From assembly GCA_951406725.2 (NCBI GenBank), contig OX597815.1, forward strand, positions 14,384,001 to 14,448,000: a stretch of 64,000 bases of DNA, given 5' to 3'. The translations under genes and the position numbers were made by a program. The notes beneath the pieces are model-generated. The model searched no databases. It was not told the origin of the DNA and was given only the letters and a program-made list of their open reading frames with translations. Positions 21,584-58,441 of this stretch are shown here, in pieces. The DNA comes from Octopus vulgaris (lineage: Eukaryota). Numbering within the stretch: position 1 is the first letter of the stretch; each line of letters opens with the position of its first letter.

Positions 21584-22921
21584 CACAGACATGACAGAAG
21601 TAAATAGACGCCCTTATAATCGTTAACATTTATTTAAATCTAAAACTATATATCTAAATTATTAATTATTCAATGCAAAGGTCCTATTAGGCTTGTTACT
21701 GATCAGATGCCAAGACATTCCTCCAGAGAATATTCGTCAAGTTTCATACAGTTATCTTAAATGATTTGGATTTGAGGATGATTTCTTGCTATTTTTATGC
21801 CCCAGAATGGGTTCATATTTGGTGACTGGCTTGACCATGGAAGCTTTTTAATGCCATTCTCTTCCAAGCAATCTAGGACCTTTTTAGCCGTGTGACAAGG
21901 TACCCCGTCTTTCATAAATAAAGAGTCTTCTTTAATCATTTCACCAGAAAGGAGTCCTTTCTGCAATATGGACACATATTTATTTGAATTTATGTTTCCC
22001 TCACACTCCACCAGCTCTGATCGATCATTCCTCCAAATTGCTCCCCTTACCATCACAGAATAGCCGCCGTGTTTCAATGTTGGCTGCAATCTTTCCACGT
22101 CAAATTCTTGATCCCAGAGTCTCTAGACCTACACGACCACTGTCAGAAAATACATCAAATTTGGACTCATCATAGAATATGACAGCGTCCCAAAATGCTA
22201 GTGGCCTCTCCGCCATCTCACTGGCCTAATCTTTTCTCCGCTTGATATTGACTGGTCGAAGATGTGGCTTCCTTCTTGATGCTCTGCCATAATAGCCAAA
22301 TTTGTAGAGATACCTTACAGCTGTTCTGGGACTCACATCAACTTGTTTTTCTTTGTCAGAAACCTTCCAATAAGGATTATCCTTTAAACTTTTCTTAACA
22401 AAGCGAAAGTTCCTGCTAGAGGGTCCTGGTCGACCTGGGCGAGGTGATGGAGACTCCTTCTCATCTCTGGTGAATTGCACAATCATTCTATTGATTGTAG
22501 AAAGTGGGATCCCATGTTTTTCTGCAATTTTATGTTGACTACGTCCACCTTTAGATTGACCTACCTATTCTCTTAACGAAGCGAAGGGTCCTGTCAGAGG
22601 GTTCTGGTTGACCTGGCTGAGATGATATGGACTTTTTCCCCTCTGTGGTGAATTGCACAATCACTCTATTAACTGTAGAAAGCGGGATCCCAAGGTTTTC
22701 TGCGATTTTACACTAAGTCCACCTTCAGGTTGACCCACAATATGGCCTCTTTGAAATTCAGACAGTTCCAAGGCTTCTTTTGTACGAGGCATGTTTAAAG
22801 AGTCACACATAAAACCTGAAACATAAAAATGTCAATCAATATAAAAATAACCTTTTTCAAGTTAAATTAAACATCAAACGATATTTTTATGGTCTGTCTA
22901 TTTACTTCTGTCATGTCTCTG
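21584..22921 (-). mobile_element. Tc1-like DNA transposon, full length, decayed transposase
   Basis: TIRs CA(C/G)AGACATGACAGAAGTAAATAGAC, TA on both flanks; peptides PTLKHGG.SVMV.G, FMKDGVPCH, LPWSSQSPNMNP; internal duplication of about 180 bp. Confidence 0.92.
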
Positions 22922-38597: not shown

Positions 38598-39641
38598 CTA
38601 GCAGTATAGCCTGGCGTTGCTCGAGTTTGTTTTTTAGTTGCGCTTAAAACGGCAGACTTTGATGTCGCATTAATAATGTTTTGACATAGTTTCAATCTAT
38701 GAATAAATGTATAGTGTGGCGAAGCTCGAGTTTGCTCTGAATGTGTTGCAAATGTGTAATGCCGACTCCAATTGTTGGTTAATATTCCTTCTATTAACAT
38801 TATGGAGAAAACAATTACCCGTAGATTTAAAGCAAAATGAAGCTCAAGTTGTGAACTGCACTGAAAATCTATTAAGAAGTTAACACTGCAACAGTATTCA
38901 TTAAGAAAAAGTACACAGCAGTCAAAAAATTGTAAAAAAATAGGGATTTTCATAGAAAAAAAAGCACCTTTTTGATGTAAATAATTTTTGGTGTTAACAT
39001 GGTCCGATTTGAATTTTTCCTTCTACGGAATGAAGAGCAAGCCTTTTTCTATTATACTCTCTATTTTGGTCAGGAAAAATACTTACAAAGTATAATGCTC
39101 ACAGCAGCTATAATGTGTTGCGGCATACAAAGGCAGTACAGTTCAAATGACTAAGCAAAATGTTCTGTCTTACGCTAATGCAATTAGTTTTTCTCACAAA
39201 CAATCGATTGAAATTGCTGAATTGTACTCAACGCTGTAGCAGTTGACGACCTTGAAAATTAGTGCATTCACGCAGCGAATATTAGGGAACAGAATCTTCC
39301 TCCCGTCGATTCAAGCAACGCTCATCTGTGGACATCACAGCCGCAACAATCGAACTCTCCATACAAAGGTGGTTTTCCATGAGAAAAATTATTAACATTA
39401 GACATCTCCCTTGCACCTTATTGAAGCTCAAGTTTCGAACTGCTCTGATTTTTTATGTAAATAATTTTTGGTGTTAACATGGTCCGATTTGAATTTTTTT
39501 TCTACGGAAGGAAGCGTAAGCCTTCTTCTATCGATCTCTCAATTTTGGTCAACTTGCGCCGCAGGGTCTCAGAGGAGATAGTGTTAGTTGAAGGCTACCA
39601 AACCTGCCAAACACAGACAACTTCAGCTTTATATATATAGT
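38598..39641 (-). mobile_element. Non-autonomous Helitron (family H1, longer copy)
   Basis: Minus strand CTATATATATAAAGCTGAAG 5' end; CTCGAGCAACGCCAGG hairpin and CTAG|T 3' end; internal duplication near 38975-39073 and 39455-39551. Confidence 0.85.
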
Positions 39642-40039
39642 ATTTGTCCCAAACTTTGGCATCGAGAGTAACACAAATGCTAGAACTGGGCGCCACTGCA
39701 TAGTGCCAAGGACTCCAAATTTGCCATCAAGATGTAGGACAAGATACTGTGATAGCCTGGGCTTCAGAGGCCCACAGCTCTTCAATATACTCCCGAAGAA
39801 CATGAGAGACCTGCAAGGGGAGGGTGCAGATGTCTTTAAAATAAAACTGGATCTCTTCCTGTCAGGTGTCCCAGATGAACCAACTTCACGGCAGGAGGTG
39901 CAGATGAGGGCAGCTGCATCGAACTCTCTCATGCACCAAATGGCAGTTGCTAAAAAGCATTCGTGACGTAAAATCATGTAGCAACACCAAATGGCGGTGC
40001 CCCAGCATGGCCACAGCTCGTGAGCTGAAACTAGATAAA

Positions 40040-41046: not shown

Positions 41047-42248
41047 TATGCAAACTTGCCACTAGTTCAAATATGCTTTAGACGTATTCGAATACGTCCC
41101 TCTACGTTTCGGCCCCTGTCTAAATAAAGAAATCGTCGTTACAATCATCTGAAATGGAACAGTCAAAGCGCGATATTCGAGCAATTTTGCTATTCAATTT
41201 CGAAACACGTGAAACAGTTGAAACTACTCGCGATATCAGCGAAACGTTTGGTGAGGAAATAACCAGTGAGTGGTCAGCTCGAAAATGGTCAAATGACTTC
41301 GCAGTAGAGACCTGAGCCTTGAAGATCGTAAGAGTAGTGGACACCCATCTGTCATCGATGACGGTCAATTAAAGACCATAATTGAGAAAGATCCACGTAA
41401 AACCACTCGAGAACTGGCAATAGAACTTCAAGTCAGCCAGAAAACTGCCTGCAACCATTTGCTTGCGATCGAAAAGTCAAATAAGCTCCGCAAATTGGTA
41501 CCACACGAGTTGAATGAAAATCAGAAAATGTGCAGATATGAAATTTTCTCGTCGCTTCTTCTCCGTAACCAGACCGATCTATTTCCTGACCATAACTTGT
41601 GATGCAAAGTGGATTTTGTACAATAACAAAAACGTTTTTTCGCAGTGGCTGGATCAAAATGAAGCACCGAAAAACCTTCCCTAAACCCGAGCTCTTCAAA
41701 AAGAAGGTTATGGTGACTGTTTGGTGGTGTATTGTTGGACTCATCCACTGTAACTTCTTAAAACTCGGAAAAACCAATACTGCAGAAACATATTGCCATG
41801 AAATTGCCAAAATGAACGACAGACTGCTACTCCTCCGTCCCAGATTGGTCAACAGAAGAGGGCCAATCATTCTTCATGACAATGCTCGACCACACGTTTC
41901 ACTAATGACGCTCCAGAAGTTGAGGGAACTTGGCTACGAAGTTCTTTCTCACCCAGTTTATTACTTAGACCTTTCTCCTACCGACTACCACTTTTTCAAG
42001 CATCTTCATGGTTTCCTGTGAGAGGAGGAATTCAAAAATCAAACCGATGCTGAAGGTGCATTCAAAGTGTTCATCAGCTCCAGAACTCCAGATTTTTATG
42101 TTACCGGAATAAACAAACTTGTAATTTGCAGGCAAAAATGTCTTGATTGTAATGGTGCTTACTTTGATGAATGAAATTTCCGCATTGATGAAGTATATTG
42201 TGATGAATTTCTTGTTTAAAAACGTTGCTTACTTTTTACTCAGCCTAA
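41047..42248 (+). mobile_element. Mariner (DD34D) transposon, decayed, left TIR missing
   Basis: WVPHEL-like motif, KKVMVTVWW, HDNARPH, DLSPTDYHFF; right end TTACTTTTTACTCAGCCTAA|TA; frameshifts and stops. Confidence 0.9.
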
Positions 42249-42743: not shown

Positions 42744-43452
42744 TGTACGTGATTAGTATTCTATTGTATCTAAAAGAGCTGATTACCTAGATTTGTCACA
42801 GACTCATTATAAGGGGATTATGACAAGAACGCTTAATGAATCCTTAAAGCTGTAAGACTCTGAAACAACCTCAAGACAGATTAATCACGAACATCTTTCT
42901 TCATTTCATGATTTATTTTCACGAGGTTGCTCAAAATTGCAGCAACATATTTACTGTAAATAATTGTACGTCTTGGTAACTTCCACAAACCTACAAGTCA
43001 GGTATGATTTGAACTCGGACGAAGAAATCACACAAATATATTTTTAACAGCTTAACTTGTCACACCTTCTTGTGATTAATATTGTCCATCGAAATAGTGA
43101 TGGTTTCATCCTTACTTTAATAAATCCGAAGACGGTTATGTTTCACTGTTGAGTTCTTATACGAATGAAACATTTCGGAAATTGTCTCCCTTATTTGCTA
43201 AAGTGAGTAGTATAATATCACTTATTGACATTAAGTTTCCCCTTCCTCAGTGCATAATTTTTTTTTTTTTTATGATTTTACATATTAACAGTTATTGCCA
43301 AGCTAATATGGCAGTCCATAAATATAAGACTAAAGCTACCGTTGATTAGCTCCAAGAGGCCATCGCCTCTAGCTAGCTATATGACACACAAACCTGTGTC
43401 CATTATAACCTTCGAAGAGGGGAGGTCAGCCGCTTCCCCTTGCTGGTCAGGC

Positions 43453-43496
43453 ATCTGCAGACATGCTTCATGGTATTTGCCCTTTATCAATGCAAA
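43453..43496 (-). ncRNA. Second, degenerate copy of the U3:A8 hammerhead motif
   Basis: Minus strand TTTGCA-TTGATAA-AGGGCAAATACCAT-GAAG-CATG-TC-TGCAGAT. Confidence 0.55.
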
Positions 43497-43731
43497 GTAA
43501 CCAAACCCAGCAGGCGTCGCTGCTGACCGTCTGTTCGAAGGATTATTTACCTAATTTCAGTGGAATACATCCACTGGTTTTCAAAAATAGAAATATTAAA
43601 GTTTTTAAGTCTCTCTTTTAAGGCAGCGGTACTGGAAATTAACAGTTATCGCCAAGCTAATATGGCAATCCGAAATTAGGTAAATAATCCTTCGACAGAC
43701 GGTCAGCAGCGACGCCTGCTGGGTTTGGCTA

Positions 43732-43776
43732 ATCTGCATTGATAAAGGGCAAATACTCTGAAACGTGTCTGCAGAT
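43732..43776 (+). ncRNA. Type-I hammerhead ribozyme motif, U3:A8 variant
   Basis: ATCTGCA-TTGATAA-AGGG-CAAATA-CTCT-GAAA-CGTG-TC-TGCAGAT; 7-bp stem I, GUC site. Confidence 0.75.
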
Positions 43777-46411
43777 GCCTGACCAACAAGGGGAAGCGGC
43801 TGACCTCCTCCCCTGTTCGAAGGTTATAATGGACACAGGTTCGTGTATCATATAGCTAGATAGAGGCGATGGCCTCTTGGAGCTAACCAACGGCAGCTTT
43901 AGTCGTATATTTATGGACTGCCATATTAGCTAGGCGATAACTATTAATATCCAGTACCGCTGCCGTAGTCTCCCTTAGAGAGACTTGGAAATTTTAATAT
44001 TTCTATTTTATATATTCATTACGTTTAATACATTCTCTATAACTTACTTGATAACCACTTTTCATACAGATGACGCTTCGCGTAATTAATCTCAAAGATT
44101 TATTCTTTTTAGTATGCTACGTGTTACGCCTACGCATGTAGAATGCCATAAATATACATGATACTTATCTCACCATTACTTCGGCAAATATAATTATGTC
44201 TATGATTTGCCAAAAATGTTTAATAAGACTGAAACATAACCGAAGTTGTTTTCTGTGCTTACCAAACTATAACTTTTTTTTTTTACTTATAACTTACTTA
44301 TAACTTACTGTTTAAAAGTATTAATCTAACATCTCACAATATTCTTTCATAATTTTCATTTTCTGTGCATGCTATACGCTTTTTAAGTTCATTATATCCT
44401 CATTTCAATTAAGTTTTAGGTTAATTTAATATGGTTTCACTGTACAGATAAAGAGAGCAACTTCGTATGTCACAGTTACTTGAGATGTTTTGTTTTGTTT
44501 TTGTATGTTACTTAATGCATTTGAAACTCCTCTACGTGATACACATGTAGTTCCGAGTGGTGCTATATTCTGGAGGTGTGTACATGTGTAAATCATGACA
44601 TTTATTTATATATTTTCTACATATTTTTTAATAAATCCCAAGAAACAACCCCTAGGATTTGCCTTTGTTTAGATCCCTCAGGTCCTAATTATCTCTCTTC
44701 ACAGATTATCAACATTTACGTTTGTTTTTTTGTTTTTTTAAGTCCATTGAACCTCTTGAAGGAAATGTTATAGTAGAAGACCGAGAAGTCTGTAATCATC
44801 TTTTGAAAATATTGATTCAATAAAACGGAATGAAGAACTTACAGATTCAATAACCCCACCCCTCCACCCCCTCCCTTGATACAATTGCAAGTCTTTGCGG
44901 CGATGTCGAATGGATATAAATGCTGAGGAAAAGCAAAATTATGATATTCACCAAAATAACATAGTGAATCTAACTGAAATAAATAACAGGGAAGACGCTC
45001 GAAAAATTGCATCCGTTTAAACATTTTGGAAAAGGCGAAAAAGGAATGTCAAATCACAGGAAGAAGTAAAATGCTGAATTGCGGCAGTTTCTGTAATTTT
45101 AGCAAAATGAAACACAGTTTGGGAATATATATAATTGACAAAGTTGTTGGAACATTGGATAGAAGCGTTGCAGTATTTTTCTCTGTTTTCTGCGCTTTGA
45201 GTTCAAACTCCGTCGAGGTCAATTTTATCTTTCATCGTTTCGGAGTCGATAAAAAAATACGAATCCGTGGCAGGTGATCGTAGGAAATGTTTCTCTTTCG
45301 GTCCTTTTGCACTCTAATACCAACGTCTGCAACATATTTGATGCCAGGCTTTGTCAGCAGAGGTCAGCAACCATTAATTTGGGTACAACTGATGGGTGGT
45401 GGCTAATCACATTAGCGTTGCAGCATAATCTGTAAACAAAATCATTCTGCCACGAAATCTGCCGTTAATTTTCGTAATCCGTTTCATTATATGATTTTTT
45501 TTCAAAATGCCCGGTGAGAAGAGATGTGACCTTTTGTCCTTTTATGGCATCTCATGGAAAGGCTCTAGGGCCTGACTCCTTTGGTGGAGTCTGAGATGAA
45601 GACATTAACTATGTATCTTTTTATGGTGTCTGATGGAATATTTGAGCCAAGATCTGCAATTCTTCAAACTCAGTCTTTCATTCTGCGATACCTGTGCATT
45701 CCAGAGCATCTTTTGCATATCAACTTCCGCCCGTCTCTTATCAAATATTGACCATGTGAGGCTTTTACATGTTAACTTCCAATCATGACATATAATATAT
45801 AGTTTTAAGGGGTTTTTTTTTTTCATAATTTCTGTTGTTCTTTCTTTTCCCTTCTCACAAATGTCTGTCGGCTTCCTATTCATTTATCATTTTATTCGTT
45901 GTTATAGATGTTGTTGCCGCTGTTGTTGCTTCACGGAATCATTCAGAAAATCCTCAGATAAAACTTTTCGTTCACTCGACAGACAGGCCAGGAATATAAA
46001 GTTATTCCTGACAAGAAAAAAAGTAGACACAGACGTGTCAAATAGAGACAGAAGTGTCAGAATATGAAAGACGTATAAAAGGAAATAAAGGTTACAGGAT
46101 TTAAATCTTTCATAGCAATAAAAAGAATTGTATGGAAGAGAGGGAAATAGAAAGCAAAAGAGAGAGACAGGCAGAGAGAGATAAAAAAAAAGAAAGACAG
46201 ACAGAAAGAAAGAGATCAAAGAATAATAATATTCTGTCTATAAAAACAAACAAAGATGCTATAGTAAACGTAGGAGAATAGATAGAATTGATTATGGAGA
46301 AATCATAATGAATAGAAAATGAATGGAATGGTATATAAAGGAAATTTGGTGGAATCTAAATAAATATAGTAAAGAACGCAGAGAAACAAAAGATTAAAAA
46401 GCACAAGTATA

Positions 46412-53603: not shown

Positions 53604-54708
53604 CTCTTTCTCACAAGTTTTGTCGAGCTCCTGCAGTCTTGCATGTGTAGCGGGCTTACTACCTGCAGCCTACAGTACCATGCTATTCATTCTCTACAGC
53701 TATCTAATACTTTCCTGATTATTCTGGCCGTACCAAGGAGGCAAACCTTTTGTAACTGTTCTACTGGGCACTCTATTCCAATTTCCTTTATATTGCTCTT
53801 GATACCTTCTGATACTGTTTCCGAGGACCCAACAATAATTGGCACTATATTCACCTTCTTCATTTTCCATAGGCAAGCTATTTCGTACTTATGAGAATTG
53901 TATATTTTTTCGCCTTCCTTCTTGACTATTCGTGGGTCAAAAGAGTATGGAACGTCAACTATATAGCATATGTGGTGCACCTTATCCACCATCACTATGT
54001 CCGGTCTGTTATGCTCTAGTAGCTGATCTGTTTGGATTGGGAAATCCCAGAGGATTCTGCTCGTCTACGACTCTGCCACTCGTTGTGGTCTGTGTTCATA
54101 CCACGCCTTGTCTCTCTCTCTAGCTCCCACTTCTTGCAGTTTCCAATGTATCACTTTCGCTATCTTGGAGTGTCGCCACAACTTATAGTGGCTTTGGGCA
54201 ATTCTAGGGTATTTGTTCGTGATATGGACAATGGTTTCATCCACTTTATTGCAGATACGATACAGCAGAGATATCTGCTCATTCCTAAAGTTGACCCTCC
54301 AGTTCATGGCCAAAGCTTGGTCCTGCGCTGCCATTATAGTGCTTTCGGTCTCTTTTTTTAGGGTTCCTTTCTTCAGCCAATCTCAACTATTTTTACCAGC
54401 AACTTCTGTTGTGGCTACATGGAATTGATTGTGTAGTCCCTTCTTTCCTAATTCTTCATGTCCTTTTTATACTTCTTACTTTGTTTTCCCTTTTTTTCTG
54501 CTCTCAATATTCCCTCGTTCCTAACTGTCACTAGCAAGGTTTCCTTTCTTTGGACTAGGTCTATCATTAAGCTTTCGACTTTCATACGCACGTAGTCATC
54601 CACACTTATCAGTCCCCTTCCTCTATTTACTCTCTTCATGTGTAGGCAATCAGTATTTCACGTGGATGATGTGTTCCATGCATCATTAGGAGCTTTCTTG
54701 ACTTCTTA
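53604..54708 (-). mobile_element. Dong/R4-like LINE 3' part inserted in (TAA)n
   Basis: Peptides RGRGLISV, KETE..MAAQDQAL, RH.KIAKVIHW, WYEHRP, FDPRIVKKEGEKI, LQKVCLLGTARIIRKVL; 3' end abuts (TAA)n at 53526-53603. Confidence 0.88.
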
Positions 54709-57197: not shown

Positions 57198-58441
57198 TTG
57201 GGATGGCAAGAAAGTAGTTTCGTTTTTCGCAAATAGAGTTACAATTTTTTTGAATGACTTTTATCTATGTGAGGATTTTTTTCCTTTTGACATTTTATCG
57301 CGGTTTCCTTTAGCTTACTTTAGAAGCAAATTGCACGTAATGTTGTTTACAGTCGTTAGTTCGGTGTCGATTTTCACTTGCTGTGCAAAAACGAACATTT
57401 TCGCCATATTTTGCTTTTTTATTTCCGTAAAGGCAAGAAAGTTGCTGAGGCTCACAAAGAGATATGTGAAGTTTATGGCATTGATTGCTGAACAGAACGC
57501 ACACGTCAGAAATGGTTTTACATATTCCGTTCTGAAGATCTTTCACTCAAAAATGACCAAAGTTCTGGTCGACCTACTGAAGTTGATGATGTCAGAATCG
57601 AAGCCATAATTGAATCTGATTGTTATATAATTGTGCGAGAGATTGCAGAGAGGTTAAATGTATCATTAAGAATCTCGATACTTGGGGTCTACATAAATTG
57701 AAACAGATTCACTTAGCACATCGAATCAATATTTGCGATACGCATCTCAAATGAAATGAAAGCGACCTTTTTGTAAGCGAATCATCACTGGTGATGAAAA
57801 ATGGATTGTCTGTAATAACATCAATCGAAAGCGATCATGGTTCAAGCGAAATGAACCAGCAAAAACCACATCGAAAGCTGAATTGCATAAAAAAAAGGTC
57901 ATGCTGTCAATTTGGTGGGATTACAAAGGTGTTGTGTATTTTGGACTGCTTCCAAGGAACCAAACGATCAATTCAAATGTTTACTCTCAACAACTAATGA
58001 AACTGGAGGAAGCAATCAAAGAAAAACGACCAGAATTGGTATATCGTAAAGGAATCGTCTTCCACCATGACAACGCTAGGCCACACACGTCTTTGCTAAC
58101 TCGTGAAAAATTATTGGTGCTTGGTTTGGAGGTGGTGTCACATCCACCATATAGCCTTGAAATTGCACCATCAGATTACCATTTATTTCGAAGTTTACAA
58201 AGTTCTTTGAATAGTAAAACTTCCAATAATGATGATGACTTGAAATCTCACTTGCTTCAGTTTTTGCCTGATAAGGACCAGACGTTCTCTGAACGCACAA
58301 CCATGAAGTTGTCAGAATGATGGCAGAAGGTCATCGAACAAAACAGAAATATATATAATTGATTAAAGTTCATTCTTTGTGTGAAGAAAAAATGACTTTT
58401 ATTTCACACTAAAAAACTGAAATTACTTTCTTGCCAACCCA

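Follow-up and report, generated by a model that had tools for sequence, protein, structure and literature searches.

A non-coding hammerhead-motif repeat of Octopus vulgaris, likely a non-LTR retrozyme inserted in trans by a Penelope-like enzyme

Results and Discussion

The window analysed here is a 64,000-nucleotide stretch of Octopus vulgaris DNA (contig OX597815.1, positions 14,384,001–14,448,000; search genome 2.8 Gb, 227 contigs). At positions 43282–44009 it contains one head-to-head insertion, situated between 12-nt repeats that resemble target duplications. The inserted repeat is a non-coding 361-bp unit with a hammerhead motif and, quite probably, a non-LTR retrozyme. An RT/GIY-YIG enzyme of the Penelope-like type is likely to have inserted it in trans, with an RNA of monomer length, probably a circle, as the template. 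With high confidence, the repeat can be regarded as a non-autonomous retrozyme mobilised by Penelope-like elements (PLEs). Judged by structural criteria read from its sequence, the family adds a new member to the non-LTR retrozymes, a class already known. The original prediction of a candidate retrozyme is supported by these data, the repeat unit being non-coding, tandem and hammerhead-bearing.

Architecture of the window locus

A restart of the unit at 43638 with a spacing of 354 had been proposed and was recovered by self-BLAST, which aligns 43284–43317 with 43638–43671 (34 nt, 94% identity). The same alignment verifies the inverted copy at 43672–44009 and its different starting point: 43672–43950 is an inverted copy of 43282–43560, and 43915–44009 of 43584–43671. 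Since the RNA sense lies on the minus strand in copy A and on the plus strand in copy B, the two arms are arranged head-to-head (Table 1). Read in the ribozyme sense, arm A runs from 43671 to 43282 (u326–361, then u1–361) and arm B from 43672 to 44009 (u85–361, then a tail from u1 to about u57), where u denotes the position in the natural 361-bp reference unit of locus L004. The locus contains 1.1 + 0.9 units. Read in this orientation, the 34-nt restart corresponds to what 5' truncation has left of a preceding unit. The 354 bp that had been taken for the monomer length hold as the local spacing but not as the unit of the family, which measures 361 bp in the reference and 362 bp in a young subfamily; the shorter spacing is due to a 7-bp deletion in copy A. 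As predicted, the element has no ORF beyond a longest Met-ORF of 52 aa. The window is rich in microsatellites, and a repeat scan over its whole length was swamped by them.

Table 1. Features of the insertion in the window (positions within the window; u, position in the reference unit)
Feature	Position	Strand	Remark
Left 12-mer, target-site-duplication-like	43275..43286	.	11/12 identical to 44005–44016; overlaps the A end of arm A
Arm A, full unit u1–u361 with 7-nt deletion, 354 nt; ends at fixed 3' site A (43282)	43282..43635	-	
Arm A hammerhead motif, damaged (A15.1 -> G, helix II mismatch)	43453..43497	-	likely inactive
PSE-like site, snRNA-type, u58–79; predicted start ~u122–126 (~43517–43521)	43564..43585	-	profile; U1/U2 upstream regions
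Arm A, 5'-truncated end of preceding unit, u326–u361; makes the head-to-tail junction	43636..43671	-	
Arm B, 5'-truncated unit u85–u361, inverted relative to arm A; without upstream PSE-like site	43672..43950	+	
Type I hammerhead motif of arm B	43732..43776	+	layout intact; family covariation
Helix I	43732–38/43770–76	+	7 bp
U3-A8 core	43739–45	+	
Helix II	43746–49/43756–59	+	4 bp
Helix III, near-palindromic	43763–68	+	
Predicted cut	after 43769	+	GUC ends at 43769
Arm B tail, u1 to ~u57; ends at fixed 3' site B	43951..44009	+	
Right 12-mer, target-site-duplication-like	44005..44016	.	11/12 match to left 12-mer

The hammerhead motif

The motif predicted at 43732–43776 is present with the described layout, that is a 7-bp helix I, a core from 43739 and a GUC ending at 43769. 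The further claim of a hammerhead motif in each copy holds for copy B, which passes a filter for core plus helix II, but not for copy A, which displays GAAG in place of GAAA-C as well as a mismatch in helix II and fails this filter. With one hammerhead per arm and damage to the arm that bears the promoter-like site, the window locus is likely a dead-end product. Only the motif of copy B is intact, so that the locus is probably unable to yield a monomer. It can be seen as a likely inert product, in which the PSE-like site and the damaged motif reside in arm A and the intact motif in arm B.

Throughout the family, the motif corresponds to a type I hammerhead with a U3-A8 variant of the core and mostly A10.1-U11.1, and 25/30 motifs at loci picked by whole-unit similarity retain the core. 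An Rfam search of the window gave nothing at the gathering threshold and no hammerhead family at E<=10, only chance miRNA/sRNA matches. In an alignment of 24 units, 96.7% of the cells are paired and helices I, II and III each show one double change, these events being few and the sequences related; RNAalifold records double changes in 11/83 pairs. The double change in helix III keeps the palindrome. This helix is a self-complementary hexamer and thus suited to dimeric action, and the motif of locus L208 is predicted to cofold as a dimeric hammerhead; no dimeric-form cofold was obtained for window copy B and L004. Circular folding puts the hammerhead at the far end of a long stem and gives the units z-scores of -7.8 and -6.9, only slightly stronger than those of the antisense folds (-6.7 and -5.9). 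In published work, motifs of this kind often cleave slowly. The single canonical C3-G8 hammerhead detected with a similar helix I (L197/L218) shows neither similarity to the unit nor a match to a PLE ORF.

A dispersed repeat family

A single-copy sequence had been named as the outcome that would speak against a retrozyme. Instead, the search of the octopus's own genome at the DNA level returned 2,897 candidates, of which 40 were scored and are 89–95% identical, the window itself being set aside; the feature in the window is therefore not a chance occurrence. Moreover, an exact 22-mer from the 3' end of the unit has 4,233 matches in the genome and two hammerhead patterns have 136 and 475, while all reversed controls gave 0. 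Among the matches listed, the first 100 of the 4,233 form 57 clusters, which places the number of loci at no less than about 2,400. A total of 165 distinct loci was mapped. Of these, 52 were picked for similarity, two hammerheads or neighbouring matches, 60 are hammerhead matches in the order in which they occur in the genome, and the 3' and variant-core patterns supplied 53. None of the 165 displays an LTR-internal-LTR layout.

The family comprises several subfamilies, and the young 362-bp one is about 82% identical to the reference unit. It also contains the longest array seen (6.4 units). The GC content of the unit is 41–43%. With 361/362 bp, the head-to-tail units lie within the range of about 150–450 bp by which retrozyme repeats are recognised. 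Two intact hammerhead motifs are found in 22/165 loci, a set partly selected for them, and in 0/60 loci of the genome-order set; a two-hammerhead pattern, which misses the variant core of the young subfamily, has 17 genome matches. The hallmark of an 'active' retrozyme is hence present at the family level (22/165) and not at the window locus, and source loci would be among these arrays with two intact motifs. The repeat also occurs in contigs of a sequencing run labelled as a second organism. Contigs of presumed-RNA runs cover the unit and often extend into the flanks, as host transcripts would; strand, ends and circles are not visible in contigs.

Insertion footprint

The 3' ends of the insertions fall at two fixed sites 57 nt apart, A (u361) and B (~u57), and usually lie in (TA)n. 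5' truncation is variable, with a peak of arm 5' ends at u220–240. Head-to-head arrangements were observed at 83/165 loci. After setting aside 23 of the 87 inverted pairs, in which one end lies elsewhere, 60 of the remaining 64 combine an A with a B end, three are A+A and one is B+B (p=4e-14, with one duplicated locus, L219, counted twice). The 74 single-arm loci end about equally at A (33) and B (34), and elsewhere in 7 cases. Arm junctions overlap by 1–6 nt in 26/52 pairs. Simple flanks, mostly TA, surround 46/58 loci; where the flanks are complex, repeats of 11–15 nt resembling target-site duplications (TSDs) occur at 9/12 inverted loci versus 18/132 mismatched control pairs. Taken together, the insertions bear a Penelope footprint: they target TA, are truncated on the 5' side, stop at one of two fixed 3' sites and, where inverted, mostly pair an A with a B end.

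Because of the variable 5' truncation and the two fixed 3' ends, the latter corresponding to the known Penelope tail, the inverted copy in the window begins at a permuted position. A permuted tandem had been read as what reverse transcription of a circular RNA or a Penelope pLTR would leave behind. A permuted start alone shows no circle; the stronger argument for a repeatedly copied template of monomer length is haplotype sharing within arrays (see below).

Long inverted repeats and TSD-like flanks are likewise features of MITEs or foldback DNA transposons and could suggest a LINE-dependent SINE as well. Such an origin is extremely improbable, given that the inner ends vary freely while the outer ones differ from each other (A versus B), that single-armed loci are common and that there is no poly(A) tail. 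A cleaved linear monomer that limits the cDNA was also considered and is unsupported, with 3/251 arm 5' ends at u180–190, around the cleavage site, and the peak at u220–240. In 20-nt bins, no clear peak of 5' ends was seen at the predicted transcription start.

A monomer-length template

Units of the same locus share haplotypes. In older copies, the mismatch at diagnostic positions is 0.047 between tandem and 0.030 between inverted units of one locus, compared with 0.438 between loci. Rare variants are shared in 26/192 tandem and 12/211 inverted comparisons versus 31/6,874 between loci of the same subfamily, with one pair in L047 supplying 10 of the 26. Overall divergence is slightly lower within loci (4.05% tandem, 3.89% inverted) than between them (4.36%). 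In 77 segments of the young subfamily the difference is more pronounced, with 0.44% for tandem (53 pairs) and 0.53% for inverted units (36 pairs) versus 2.2% between loci (2,801 pairs). In L208, L210 and L184, locus-private variants recur in all segments covering the site, in the last two loci on both arms. An origin of the two arms from different templates is rejected by this sharing of haplotypes and variants across arms. Moreover, it follows from the sharing within loci that many haplotypes have each been multiplied from a single monomer, which is what a circle copied by rolling reverse transcription should leave; such copying has been proposed earlier (PMC4209133, PMC7229834, in the parts accessible). 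An enzyme that jumps again and again across a terminal redundancy would produce the same picture.

A covalent circle is a moderately likely form of the template. The alternative, rather unlikely but still to be weighed, retains element and enzyme and assumes a linear template, either uncleaved multimers or a monomer with 57-nt redundancy that is recopied by template jumping, the hammerhead being dispensable or acting later. Consistent with a linear RNA, hammerhead mutants did not impair insertion by an anole PLE protein in vitro, for which unprocessed RNA was the main substrate (PMC11167929, accessible part). Furthermore, jumps between terminal repeats also give seamless, haplotype-uniform arrays, and no circle was seen in the presumed-RNA contigs, although these cannot display circles. 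However, a plain multimer would pass on position-specific variants, whereas here many haplotypes each form uniform arrays. The lack of a 5'-end pile-up at the cleavage site and of a clear peak at the predicted start, as well as the preservation of the palindromic helix III through a double change, likewise argue against this alternative.

Another possibility is that insertions of about 1.2 units grew and became uniform at their site through unequal exchange, slippage or gene conversion, in the manner of a minisatellite, a model which is discussed for retrozymes (bioRxiv 10.64898/2026.07.22.740005, accessible text). A 1-nt gap in L207, common to units 1 and 3 and absent from units 2, 4 and 5, together with the excess sharing in L047, indicates that local duplication or conversion may contribute. 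As a general explanation, growth in place is improbable: the longest arrays are found in the youngest copies (in one set, 10/56 young arms versus 1/28 others reach at least 722 nt), and even the longest has only 6.4 units. Private variants are common to opposite arms, and older neighbouring units differ at 7–26 sites and thus were not homogenised.

The Penelope partner

The original prediction had pointed out that constant attachment to an RT-GIY-YIG ORF would indicate an ordinary pLTR. No such attachment was found: a PLE endonuclease (EN) is joined to the unit at 0/165 loci, a count that could miss a very divergent ORF-bearing master, and the repeat is for this reason not regarded as a pLTR. 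Loci that are truncated stumps of an autonomous Penelope element, with the unit as its pLTR or 3' end, would account for tail, inversion, TSD and TA targeting, all of which are PLE features (PMC8557442, PMC3846280), and PLEs do carry U3-A8 hammerheads (PMC4209133; accessible parts of all three). This reading is nevertheless very improbable, since after each head-to-tail junction the sequence is back at the same junction within 361 nt, leaving no ORF. An EN probe over 226 loci detected only PLE fragments, none contiguous with the unit, and a full-ORF probe over the 60 genome-order loci and later loci concurs. The EN fragment beside L008 belongs to a separate PLE insertion, which has an inverted end of its own, and the 3' region of its family is unalignable to the unit.

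The search for a partner covered, in depth, one out of many PLE families. This co-resident RT+GIY-YIG element, Neptune-like as suggested by its linker motif, is abundant and was recently active. It lands in TA, possesses two ends 48 nt apart and displays A+B in 4/4 classified inversions (2 more are unclassified). In addition, its B end and the B end of the unit have a 9-nt terminal word in common. Because the remainder of its 3' region shows no alignment to the unit, the element ranks as a candidate partner only. Among the tested EN-bearing loci, no 3' region aligned convincingly to the unit (L063 reached z=4.9, which was not reproduced in its sisters), and the search brought up no autonomous element whose 3' UTR can be aligned to it.

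Comparison with known systems

Non-LTR retrozymes are understood as non-autonomous PLE-type elements (bioRxiv 10.64898/2026.07.22.740005), and metazoan units measure 350–390 bp in mussel and 330/350 bp in axolotl (PMC7229834; same preprint). So far as these sources are accessible, the octopus family resembles metazoan non-LTR retrozymes in its non-coding tandem unit of a few hundred bp, a GC content below 50%, TSDs longer than 4 bp and co-resident PLEs, as well as in the type I hammerhead, the short palindromic helix III and the strong circular fold. It differs from them in the U3-A8 core with mostly A10.1-U11.1 and in the lack of an Rfam match and of an alignable PLE parent among the elements found. 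Moreover, the octopus copies are mostly dispersed insertions of 1–2 units, half of them head-to-head. Counting against the proposed mechanism, only 1/9 Xenopus retrozyme dimers cleaved according to the accessible part of the preprint.

With EN+ PLE insertions, in which a one-sided tail, inversion and partial tandems are on record (PMC8557442, PMC3846280, PMC11167929, accessible parts), the family shares partial tandems, an inverted 5'-truncated copy and a tail at one end only. Also shared are two RT start sites, AT-rich or microsatellite targets and a similar TSD size (8–10 bp in rotifers). Unlike these PLEs, the octopus unit has no ORF, the whole element comprises only 361 bp, and its tail is 57 nt long rather than 30–40. 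In the anole system, the PLE protein acts on both strands, cutting and then extending them, and synthesis begins at two internal positions that delimit the tail; the accessible text reports no strand difference in start site in vitro (PMC11167929), in contrast to the A+B pairing of 60/64 in octopus. The pairing places a constraint on the PLE mechanism that goes further than the in vitro finding.

The hammerheads of Cercyon PLEs (PMC4209133, accessible part) likewise combine U3-A8 with palindromic positions 15.2–16.2, a predicted dimeric action and opposite-strand pairs 100–700 bp apart. In contrast to them, the octopus motif has a helix I of 6–7 bp and a 4-bp helix II that lacks the additional 9/10.1 base, and thereby comes nearer to the canonical type I motifs of animals. 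Newt satellite 2, as described in the accessible parts of two reports, is a hammerhead repeat of similar length (~330 bp) with an internal snRNA-type promoter (PMC2220036) and dimer-dependent cleavage (PMC7229834). In octopus the promoter is only predicted and, unlike the satellite, the insertions are dispersed and Penelope-shaped.

Literature searches found no paper on a cephalopod retrozyme, although supplementary lists of earlier surveys may include the octopus family. Earlier retrozyme papers, in their accessible parts, proposed PLE machinery and circular templates from co-occurrence and homology and not from the insertion step. For this step the octopus family provides countable footprints, both starts being used in 60/64 inverted pairs and arrays being uniform for private variants on both arms. 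Furthermore, the family names a candidate enzyme and offers near-identical young arrays.

Proposed mechanism

Tentatively, each insertion may represent one RNA circle, copied in a rolling manner by a dimeric Penelope RT whose subunits start at the two fixed sites, one per target strand. In such a scheme, an snRNA-type promoter within the unit would drive transcription of arrays with two hammerheads, which would pair via their palindromic helix III and release a monomer that is then ligated to a circle. A dimeric PLE protein would nick both strands of AT-rich DNA about 11–15 nt apart and prime one cDNA per strand, one starting at A and one at B. Each cDNA would circle the template for a variable distance before the two are joined by microhomology. 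If true, rolling copying of a single circle would provide direct genomic evidence for the long-proposed step from circle to genome, along with a ready substrate for in vitro work.

A putative internal promoter

The upstream regions of the U1 and U2 genes have a common core at -55 to -59. With a profile of four promoter types, u58–79 is the best site on the sense strand, equalled in 0/300 shuffles of L004, 11/300 of L208 and 1/300 of window copy A. This profile test is partly circular, because the anchor was picked after the U2 upstream alignments had been seen, and singly these alignments are not significant at the common site (z<1). The PSE-like site predicts a transcription start near u122–126. 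If true, the repeat would constitute a self-promoting circle with an internal snRNA-type promoter, parasitised by a LINE-like element at its start site. In L126 a gag-like, LINE-type insert with a 10-nt duplication is situated at u119–128. Related gag-like sequence adjoins the unit at this same site in L105 and L201, and in L039 it follows a deleted piece of the unit.

Interruption and truncation of the repeat unit

Positions u119-128 of the 361-bp hammerhead-motif unit (u, position in the natural unit of locus L004) are the site of a gag-like (zinc-knuckle) LINE-type element at four of the genomic loci drawn for comparison, namely L126 (2409-5942), L105, L201 and L039. At L126 the element is accompanied by a 10-nt duplication. 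Since in both L105 and L039 the 5' end of the element is fused to an identical deleted piece of the unit, the combination suggests a mobilised chimera.

The 5' truncation and inversion points of the family cluster at u220-240, a palindrome within the long stem, and at u143-149, which form the 5' strand of hammerhead helix I. Genome matches containing two hammerheads lie in forward orientation in 2 cases versus 15 in reverse, an imbalance possibly due to chance or to a tool effect. Whole insertions of the family are also included in local or segmental duplications (L050/L051, L165/L167, L219 and L126).

Other elements and hammerhead motifs

The co-resident RT+GIY-YIG element (L057-L086; L069:214-1902), a candidate partner, is abundant and young, with a tail of 48 nt. 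Part of its 3' region is hammerhead-like, the core being atypical. The window itself contains ORF fragments that look like pieces of transposases or LINE RTs.

ORF fragments in the window, with the protein that each looks like
Feature	Window position	Presumed resemblance
ORF fragment	21760-22564	mariner/Tc1 transposase
ORF fragment	39592-39963	LINE RT end
ORF fragment	41596-42018	mariner/Tc1 transposase
ORF fragment	53690-54064	LINE RT end
ORF fragment	57760-58317	mariner/Tc1 transposase

An isolated type I hammerhead motif with canonical C3-G8 (L197/L218; G000:C12:54769920-54769956) bears no likeness to the 361-bp unit, and a PLE ORF match is absent nearby. At L048:4000-6100, two insertions of the family are flanked by several other short hammerhead-like motifs, which belong to different repeat families. 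Among the upstream regions used for promoter comparison, an apparent LINE 3' end (poly(A)-signal-like) replaces the promoter directly before +1 of two U2 genes (L232 and L239).
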